Shown: piece by piece, positions 52,790 to 53,596 of the stretch
Layout: every line of letters starts with the position of its first letter
How positions within the stretch are numbered: position 1 is the first letter of the stretch
Translations under genes and position numbers: made by a program
The notes under the pieces: generated by a model
Seen by the model: the letters and a program-made list of their open reading frames with translations, nothing else
Database searches by the model: none
Told to the model about the DNA's origin: nothing
Assembly (NCBI GenBank): GCA_013374835.1
Contig: CP055307.1
Location: 215,315-279,314, forward strand
Reading direction: 5' to 3'
Length of the DNA stretch: 64,000 nucleotides
From: Candidatus Woesebacteria bacterium
GTDB lineage: Bacteria > Patescibacteriota > Microgenomatia > UBA8517

Positions 52790-53596
52790 CTAAATTTTTT
52801 CTTCGGCGTATTTGTTCATGCGGAAGGTAAAGACCTTCGCAGGATCGTTTGCATCGTCGGCTTTTATTTCTGATAAGGCTTGGCGGATTACACTCTCTGG
52901 GACTTTAGAAGCGACCAAGTAGTAGAAGCGCTCTGAGTGTTTGTCTTTTAAGACCTTGAGGATTTCGTCTTTGATGTAGTCCTTTTGCTCCTGGGGCATG
53001 GGGAGTGTGGGTAGTTTTTTGAAGATACTTTTATTACCGTTTGTAACGGTTTTTTGTTTATTTATTCTTTGTCTATTTATCTTTTGTCCTTGCTCTTTAG
53101 CTAATCCCCCCCTTGCTCTTTGGCAACCCCCCTCCCTGTTCTTTGACAACCCCCCCCATGTAAAAACTGGGTAGATAAAGCGGTGCGTTCCTGATTTGTC
53201 TCTCTTGACTTCGATCCTGATCTTGCCCTTTTCAGCCAGCTCCCTGAGCGGTCTGTTTACTGATTTCTCAGCTACTCCGATGGTGCGAGCTAGGTATCTG
53301 TTTGTGGCGTAGCAGAAGCCTGATTGCCTACTTAGTGCGATGACTCCGCCATAGAGGATTTTTGCCAGTTGTGATAGGTCTTGACTCTGGAGGATTTCAA
53401 TCGGAATTACTACAAAAAAGCTCGACTCGCTTCGCCCGATCTCCAGCCCCGCTTTATAAGTCTGCTGGATTAAATCGAGGACTGCTGCCAGCTGCTCGCC
53501 TTTGAACATTGGCAGGTATTTATCGACCAAGTCGTTTGGGACGGCTGTCGAATTATCTGGAGTAAGTTTTCTTTGATCGATAATCTTATCTGTCAT
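52790..53596 (-). CDS. Putative replication initiator (winged-HTH N-terminal domain), lambda O-like organisation
   Basis: N-terminal HTH (NRYLARTIGVAEKSVNRPLRELAEKGKI). A central low-complexity linker is encoded by the iteron region. Adjacent to the Rad52-like SSAP. Confidence 0.45.
   Translation of the reverse strand: MTDKIIDQRKLTPDNSTAVPNDLVDKYLPMFKGEQLAAVLDLIQQTYKAGLEIGRSESSFFVVIPIEILQSQDLSQLAKILYGGVIALSRQSGFCYATNRYLARTIGVAEKSVNRPLRELAEKGKIRIEVKRDKSGTHRFIYPVFTWGGLSKNREGGCQRARGGLAKEQGQKINRQRINKQKTVTNGNKSIFKKLPTLPMPQEQKDYIKDEILKVLKDKHSERFYYLVASKVPESVIRQALSEIKADDANDPAKVFTFRMNKYAEEKI
53040..53160. promoter_or_regulatory. Putative phage replication origin: three ~22-bp iterons (C)TTGCTCTTTGGCAACCCCCC next to an AT-rich tract, inside the initiator gene
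   Basis: CTTGCTCTTTAGCTAATCCCCCCC (53089..53112), CTTGCTCTTTGGCAACCCCCCT (53113..53134), CCCTGTTCTTTGACAACCCCCCC (53134..53157). Each has a TTGC/GCAA or TTGT/ACAA dyad. The adjacent 53041..53088 is AT-rich. Confidence 0.45.

Follow-up and report, generated by a model that had tools for sequence, protein, structure and literature searches.

A candidate iteron replication origin inside the initiator gene of a prophage from Candidatus Woesebacteria

In phage lambda, the replication origin consists of four iterons (ITN1-4) and a 38-bp A+T-rich (AT) stretch within gene O (PMC3349717). In phage SPP1, oriL –repeats together with an unwinding element– is embedded in gene 38, which encodes the replisome organiser G38P, a protein without an AAA+ domain (PMC5737612). 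For RepA_N replicons, the iterons take the form of semi-palindromic direct repeats with inverted arms converging on a poly-A tract, and the C-terminal domain (C-domain) of the initiator is host-specific (PMC7145576). Here, we describe a locus with comparable anatomy in a 64,000-nucleotide stretch of a Candidatus Woesebacteria genome (contig CP055307.1; hereafter the window), where the replication-initiator gene of a prophage contains three tandem iterons, an adjoining AT stretch, and a short palindrome. Judging by anatomy and by analogy with described systems, positions 53036-53156 are most likely the vegetative (theta-type) replication origin of the prophage, located inside the phage's own initiator gene, and they probably represent an iteron origin in the style of lambda, SPP1, and RepA_N.

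Few phages or prophages of bacteria from the Candidate Phyla Radiation (CPR) have been described, with a first report from the Microgenomates superphylum in 2019 (PMC6509639). The locus provides a concrete candidate origin and initiator for a temperate CPR phage. To our knowledge, no genetic tools exist for CPR bacteria, and a self-contained initiator-plus-origin cassette of ~0.8 kb that seemingly relies on the host helicase could serve as a natural basis on which to build a replicon. Since the basic architecture is a textbook one, specialists would not find the result itself surprising. What stands out is the CPR host, the very clean modular swaps among related loci, and a palindrome linked to the C-domain.

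Anatomy of the initiator gene and its internal repeats

The features of the locus are as follows, with the iterons numbered in gene order:
52790..53596, minus strand: replication-initiator gene, 268 amino acids (aa), from the open reading frame (ORF) list
53159..53596, minus strand: region coding for the N-terminal DNA-binding module (N-domain), aa 1-146, with a winged helix-turn-helix at aa 66-143 (AlphaFold)
53134..53156, unstranded: iteron 1, sense GGGGGGGTTGTCAAAGAACAGGG, beginning at ORF nt 441, codon phase 2; plus strand CCCTGTTCTTTGACAACCCCCCC
53111..53133, unstranded: iteron 2, sense AGGGGGGTTGCCAAAGAGCAAGG, beginning at ORF nt 464, codon phase 1; plus strand CCTTGCTCTTTGGCAACCCCCCT
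53088..53110, unstranded: iteron 3, adjoining the AT stretch, sense GGGGGATTAGCTAAAGAGCAAGG, beginning at ORF nt 487, codon phase 0; plus strand CCTTGCTCTTTAGCTAATCCCCC
53051..53087, unstranded: A+T-rich putative DNA-unwinding element of 37 bp, ~2.5 copies of a 15-bp unit, sense GACAAAAGATAAATA
53036..53050, unstranded: perfect palindrome ACCGTT-tgt-AACGGT, ACCGTTtgtAACGGT, at the far edge of the AT stretch, encoding T-V-T-N-G
52793..53032, minus strand: region coding for the C-terminal four-helix domain, aa 189-267, predicted local distance difference test (pLDDT) > 90

Tandem Repeats Finder (TRF) detected a period-23 array of 3.0 copies at 53087-53155 with a score of 80, the highest of the 31 arrays in the window, and a repeat search delimited the copies at 53088-53110, 53111-53133, and 53134-53156 (78% and 70% identity to the first copy). 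The first-pass annotation had already seen three tandem repeats in the initiator gene, each with a TTGC...GCAA dyad. The three copies were confirmed, but the unit is 23 bp rather than ~22 bp, and the dyad is perfect only in iteron 2, where its arms of only 4 bp flank CAAAGA. The copy at 53134-53156 reads cTGT...ACAA, with the inner C:G changed to T:A on both sides, and the copy at 53088-53110 carries a 1-nt insertion. In the homologue from a Daviesbacteria prophage, the dyad is a perfect TTGT/ACAA: the symmetry is preserved through a change of both arms (TTGC/GCAA to TTGT/ACAA). Iteron 3 is identical in that prophage over 18 nt, from TTAGCT up to the unit's end, and the preceding G-run differs.

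The iterons correspond to aa 147-170 of the initiator. Their poly-C runs had been interpreted as a Gly-rich linker, and the G-runs of the coding strand do translate as WGG, EGG, and RGG. Yet the three copies read WGGLSKNRE, EGGCQRAR, and GGLAKEQG, and since 23 bp cannot be divided into whole codons and the copies fall in phases 2, 1, and 0, they are repeats of the DNA and not of the peptide. The 21-mer consensus has no other site in the window at three mismatches or fewer, with 0 matches in 100 shuffles. Further iteron copies were searched for with a degenerate 14-mer, and its three 1-mismatch matches were discarded as chance (1.4 expected).

Two of the iteron runs, C7 (53106-53112) and C8 (53150-53157), are among the only four G/C homopolymers of at least 7 nt in the window. 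Slippage by +1 or -1 within the G-run of any iteron would yield a 164-166-aa protein with the DNA-binding N-domain only. In one metagenome homologue (L025), the N- and C-domains lie in different frames and the break is within the iteron zone. Sequencing error, phase variation, or production of a truncated competitor could each lie behind such slips and frame breaks.

The AT stretch had been placed at 53041..53088. It adjoins the iterons as described, but it runs from 53051 to 53087, it is itself a 15-bp repeat of 2.4-2.6 copies (TRF score 51-57), and 53041-53050 is part of the palindrome. TRF reports the 15-bp array at 53053-53088 with 2.4 copies. With a GC content of ~0.2, the stretch codes for aa 170-186; it ranks as the fourth least stable 40-bp duplex among those of the prophage (40.5 kb; top 0.04% of windows), and none in the prophage early region is less stable. 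The three segments that rank ahead of it in instability seem to lie at the ends of long prophage ORFs or between them.

At the protein level, Pfam HTH_36 matched aa 73-124 of the initiator (30.3 bits, cut-off 25), and the PHROG profiles phrog_19658, 2880, 270, 678, and 186, from replication-initiation, O-like, and DnaD-like families, matched with E = 3e-11 to 1e-9. The protein is 100% identical to one recorded from a Candidatus Woesebacteria metagenome-assembled genome (MAG). The AlphaFold model, built on 16 homologues, has a block-mean pLDDT of 81-95 across aa 61-140 (H76-89, E95-97, H99-106, H114-122, and a beta-hairpin at 126-143), followed by a linker at aa 147-187 with pLDDT < 50 that separates the winged helix from the C-domain. 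Iterons, AT stretch, and palindrome together fill exactly this linker, in agreement with the position between the two domains that had been proposed for the repeats.

The structures nearest to the N-domain in Foldseek include the N-domains of DNA-bound RepA_N plasmid initiators (4pql, 5kbj, 4pt7), DnaD-N (2v79), and MarR-type winged helices, all of them weak matches (E = 3e-3 to 1e-2). The RepA_N and DnaD-N structures (E = 5e-3 to 1e-2, target TM-score 0.47-0.56) rank amid many MarR-type winged helices. The PDB sequence search returned nothing better than E = 0.45. The C-domain, the presumed partner-recruiting module, matched no Pfam family.

The helical segment that precedes the winged helix (aa 5-58, window 53423-53584) recurs alone in another phage-like contig (L034 2372-2812), where it stands at the C-terminus of an unrelated protein of 146 aa (69% identity over the segment). 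A protein search with the N-domain alone gave a single partial match (P0017) that shares just aa 5-58, with no winged helix and no repeats to compare. The segment may therefore be portable and form a module of its own, perhaps one for oligomerisation or for contact with a partner.

By analogy with known iteron systems, dimers of the 268-aa initiator would bind the three 23-bp iterons, each with short inverted arms flanking an A-rich centre, through the N-terminal winged helix, and the nucleoprotein complex would strain the DNA and open the adjoining 37-bp AT stretch. The C-terminal helical domain, on a flexible linker coded by the origin itself, would then recruit the replicative helicase. Among the scanned ORFs of the prophage, we detected no helicase, loader, primase, or polymerase, and because the first three are missing there the helicase would presumably be that of the host. 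A later phase that depends on recombination, as lambda and SPP1 have, is suggested by the Rad52-like protein encoded next to the initiator.

Related loci and the C-domain-linked palindrome

We compared the locus with 16 initiator homologues that form two sets, one with a common N-domain (Set N) and one with a common C-domain (Set C). Set N includes the Daviesbacteria prophage L001 (84%) and the loci L003 and L005 (54%). Set C includes L007-L010 together with loci that a C-domain profile retrieved, 17 from metagenomes and 4 from genomes. Every Set N locus keeps the G-run-containing 23-bp repeats and a near-invariant AT repeat, GGACAAARGAKAAATARACAAA, in front of C-domains of three unrelated types. 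The AT stretch is the best-conserved DNA of the region, nearly invariant among four loci whose N-domains share only 54-84% identity. Set C shows the reverse arrangement: the C-domain keeps 50-75% identity across proteins with at least five unrelated N-domain types, including Phage_rep_O (PF04492, in P0009, P0011, P0014, and P0015) and RepA_N (Pfam, in P0008 and P0012).

Two relatives delimit these exchanges with blastn. L007, a 40,987-nt contig (from SRR31359996) of a sister phage with the same gene order, matches the window at 54996-53589 (86%) and 53084-52063 (80%), with no similarity over 53085-53588, that is, over the N-domain and iterons. In the exchanged segment, it has its own N-domain and four 22-bp repeats of the GAGTCTCAAAaTGAGAC type with the dyad GTCTCA..TGAGAC. 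L001 matches at 53542-53053 (84%; N-domain, iterons, and AT repeat), continues with an unrelated C-domain, and regains similarity in the next gene. The AT repeat at 53053-53084 is the junction zone, the only segment common to both recombinant relatives. N-domain and iterons thus appear to be one cassette and C-domain and palindrome another, with the AT repeat as their common junction. The collected loci are a clean natural experiment in which both cassettes were exchanged independently, with the junction in the AT stretch.

Repeats of ~22-24 bp were present at the matching place in every homologue examined, often out of codon phase, and the linker peptide was not conserved. This is the opposite of the outcome that the first-pass annotation had named as its refutation, with the protein kept and the DNA repeats lost. 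In the 100 nt upstream of the AT stretch, the strongest self-similarity offset was 21-25 nt in 20/21 loci (23 nt in 10), and in control segments of the same genes the offsets were spread over 12-36 nt, only 1/21 falling within 21-25. Individually, 12/21 loci were significant (p <= 0.05 against shuffles). Under a uniform null, 20/21 would have a probability of ~1e-13 if the loci were independent, which they are only partly.

Most repeat units consist of inverted arms around an A-rich centre, such as GTGTTaaaaaatcgAACAC, GGTACGgaattCGTACC, and TCCGCaaaaGCGGA. In qualitative terms, the iteron sequence tracks the DNA-binding domain, both in the swaps of L007 and L001 and across the 21 loci, where different N-domain types come with different repeats. 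The comparison shows the iterons, the AT repeat, and the palindrome to be elements at the DNA level that are co-inherited in modules with the two protein domains. In IMG/VR, no relatives were recovered by scans with either the full-length protein or the alignment of the C-domain.

One locus, L013 (contig DATKWK010000050.1), comes from a MAG classified by GTDB as 'Candidatus Bathyarchaeia archaeon' and bears this bacterial-type phage initiator. It is 100% identical to the metagenome contig L031 over 240 nt of C-domain coding sequence, and the upstream 280 nt shown are also the same. This could reflect either mis-binning or the presence of a mobile element in an unexpected host.

The palindrome reads ACCGTTTGTAACGGT on the plus strand (53036-53050) and codes for aa 183-187. 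In 21/21 loci with the window-type C-domain, we found CCGTT(N0 or N3)AACGG, with T-V-(X)-N-G always coded by ACC GTT (NNN) AAC GGN. In the same genes, the background shares of ACC, GTT, and AAC within their synonymous families are 0.32, 0.25, and 0.42. The top-codon frequency at 30 other conserved residue columns of the C-domain is only 0.24-0.74 (19 non-redundant loci), so synonymous sites are saturated everywhere but in the palindrome. The fourth codon, at the edge of the 10-bp core, varies (GGT, GGC, GGG). This pattern points clearly to nucleotide-level selection on a 10-bp palindrome within a coding region, in linkage with the C-domain.

In each of the three Set N loci whose C-domain is of another type, a different perfect palindrome is present (GAGGCTgaAGCCTC, GTCGCTaaaaaAGCGAC, and GGGAGAaatcTCTCCC), with arms of at least 6 bp, beginning 2-14 nt past the AT repeat. 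With a background of 8.2% per 50-nt window, the probability of 3/3 is ~6e-4.

In the proposed mechanism, the palindrome is the third element constrained at the DNA level; it travels with the C-domain and may serve as a hairpin or loading signal after melting. A spacer of 0 or 3 nt between conserved arms favours a hairpin over a rigid duplex or dimer site. We tentatively propose, as a possibility that we hold to be less likely than not, that the origin is tripartite and doubly modular, with iterons matched to the N-domain and a palindrome matched to the C-domain type. The palindrome could act as a second specific origin signal, either as a hairpin that the strand forms once melted or as a site recognised by the C-domain or by the recruited helicase. 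If true, the palindrome would tell a phage initiator that lacks a loader, in CPR and other bacteria alike, where the host helicase is to be placed.

On the plus strand, the palindrome with its T-run also scores as a terminator for antisense transcription. As the main explanation of the palindrome this was rejected, because most homologues have a zero-spacer palindrome that is unable to form such a hairpin.

Alternative explanations and points against an origin

The repeats could be a by-product of a low-complexity Gly-rich linker, generated by slippage or duplication and with no function at the DNA level. The region fits this in having pLDDT < 50 and GG dipeptides, homopolymer G-runs that are prone to slippage, and a linker peptide that homologues do not conserve. 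The repeats themselves speak against the explanation: with a unit of 23 bp, the copies fall in three different codon phases; 20/21 loci have a period of 21-25 bp irrespective of their sequence; and a dyad within the unit, kept through the two-sided change from TTGC/GCAA to TTGT/ACAA, has no meaning for a protein. Moreover, the repeat type switches along with the N-domain, and the adjoining AT repeat and palindrome are conserved at synonymous sites. We regard it as very unlikely. It is also unlikely, in our view, that the repeats are initiator sites for autoregulation, copy control, or exclusion –for instance, blocking transcription of the C-terminal half of the gene or titrating the initiator– and that the true origin is elsewhere in the prophage. 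Iterons of plasmids and lambda are indeed also regulatory or inhibitory, and ITN3-4 are needed for the 'inhibition phenotype' of lambda (PMC3349717); the prophage also has other very AT-rich spots, at 44528, 15656, and 37906. Those spots have no iteron-like array nearby, though, and no other iteron copy occurs in the window, where the degenerate 14-mer matches are near chance. Iterons joined directly to a conserved unwinding-type element are the hallmark of an origin and not of an operator, and a regulatory role could coexist with origin function.

A further explanation, to which we give the least credence, is that the AT repeat and palindrome serve mainly as a recombination 'boundary sequence' for the exchange of phage modules and not as replication elements. 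Both recombinant breakpoints lie here (L007 homology resumes at 53084, L001 homology stops at 53053), and N- and C-domains are variously combined across loci. It leaves unexplained the iterons, their helical-repeat spacing, the dyads, and the coupling to the N-domain. Functional conservation would itself create a homology patch for recombination, so boundary and origin are compatible. A centromere (parS) or a packaging site was rejected: the repeats track the initiator N-domain, the ParB_N domain is part of a fusion with a DNA methylase (47524-48822), and ~6 kb separate the repeats from the terminase genes.

Several points weigh against the origin that we propose. When the whole window was shuffled by dinucleotides, 1/100 shuffles reached a TRF score of at least 80 (periods of at least 15), so the array alone has a significance of only about p = 0.01 window-wide, and the case rests on position and comparison rather than on the repeat score. 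There are only three iterons, two of them degenerate (70-78% against the reference copy), with short dyad arms. The related loci are not phylogenetically independent, and pooled probabilities overstate the evidence. At the protein level, the initiator had no match to Phage_rep_O (PF04492) at E <= 0.1 or to RepA_N (PF06970) in the Pfam scan, and hhalign of its family alignment against lambda O gave a probability of 31% over 48 columns. The earlier suggestion of a lambda O-like locus is upheld for the architecture (position, order, and orientation) and not for family membership. The C-domain has no fold match in the PDB and no known fold relative, and no helicase or loader partner gene was found beside the initiator, which leaves the recruitment step without a partner. 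Origin function is drawn here wholly from anatomy and comparison. On the other side, the locus combines anatomical features general to iteron theta origins: at least three direct repeats, a spacing of about two helical turns, a unique locus, an adjoining easily melted AT-rich element, and the initiator gene in cis.

Prophage setting and comparison with known systems

The prophage occupies ~14.4-55.0 kb of the window (~40.5 kb), with a GC content of 0.47 against 0.38 in the flanks. It splits the host comM gene (Mg-chelatase-like) at the LFLDE (Walker B) region, and its ends are marked as follows:
13499-14446: N-half of comM, left end
14412-14421 and 54978-54987: 10-bp core TGGATGAGTT at both prophage ends
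14609-15679: tyrosine integrase, left end
54938-55597: C-half of comM, right end

A truncated Mg_chelatase gene also adjoins the Daviesbacteria prophage, and comM thus seems to be used repeatedly as an attachment site by this group of phages of CPR bacteria.

The initiator gene lies in the early arm, directly after the gene for the Rad52-like annealing protein, whose stop it overlaps with its start; a sigma-70 region-4-like protein is also encoded upstream. Downstream, the gene at 52053-52778 (minus strand) codes for 241 aa with an N-terminal hydrophobic signal-like segment, has no match in Pfam, PHROG, or NCBIfam, and is conserved in L007 and L001 whichever initiator C-domain is present. Also in the early region, the gene at 51103-52056 (minus strand) encodes a 317-aa protein with a ROS/MucR-type zinc-finger region and homing-endonuclease-associated HNH_repeat units. 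This gene is absent from the L007 alignment (gap from window 52063 to 50767) and may be a mobile insertion. The promoter scan found no sigma-70-like promoters in 52600-55000, and the only Rfam match was a tRNA-Cys outside the prophage. GC and AT skew were uninformative for mapping the origin because essentially all prophage genes are on one strand.

Among cultured phages, the closest relatives by sequence are DnaD-like initiators from phages of Staphylococcus, Lactobacillus, and Lactococcus, with N-domains that are ~30% identical in 71 phage records. In Staphylococcus phage phiIPLA5, the gene annotated as 'replication initiation protein' carries three ~23-bp repeats (TATCC..AAAAA..) and then 2.3 copies of a 15-bp AT repeat in its middle (L033 1760-1890, corresponding to about 35210-35340 of NC_018281); the NC_018281 record has no annotated origin feature. 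The gene order –Erf-like annealing protein, single-stranded DNA-binding protein, hypothetical protein, initiator– is similar to that of the window. Unlike the window, Firmicutes siphophages including phiIPLA5 have a helicase loader and a DnaB-like helicase directly downstream, and the phiIPLA5-type C-domains differ from the one described here and come with no CCGTTAACGG palindrome.

As in SPP1, putative initiator-binding repeats and an adjoining AT-rich element are located in the initiator's own gene. G38P belongs to another Pfam family, and SPP1 has its own loader G39P, its helicase G40P, and a second site, oriR, whereas the window has none of these among the ORFs scanned and no second iteron cluster. 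Both features described for RepA_N systems (pSK41, pTZ2162, and the Vibrio PLE RepA), the semi-palindromic iterons and the host-specific C-domain, match the initiator family of the window; those systems are plasmids or satellites and not phages, and the resemblance of the N-domain fold is weak (E ~5e-3).

The architecture matches that of lambda, where the origin is likewise inside the initiator gene O, in its interdomain region (PMC3349717). The lambda iterons lie at 39034-39118, with starts 20, 24, and 23 bp apart, and are followed by the 38-bp AT stretch. In both cases, iterons and then an A-rich unwinding stretch follow the direction of transcription within the linker. The lambda iteron, TCCCTCAAAACGAGGGA, is a direct repeat with a dyad around an A-rich centre like those of the window, and the lambda AT stretch contains ACAAAAGA twice, 15 nt apart, the same 8-mer and period as in the window. 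In lambda, too, specificity is modular, with the iterons paired to the N-domain and the partner to the C-domain. The two loci differ in the number of iterons (four in lambda, three here), in their unrelated C-domains, and in the P-type loader that lambda encodes immediately downstream, where the window has the 52053-52778 gene without a family match. Finally, the window locus has two traits that set it apart from lambda, a short perfect palindrome with invariant synonymous sites tied to the C-domain, and a CPR host.

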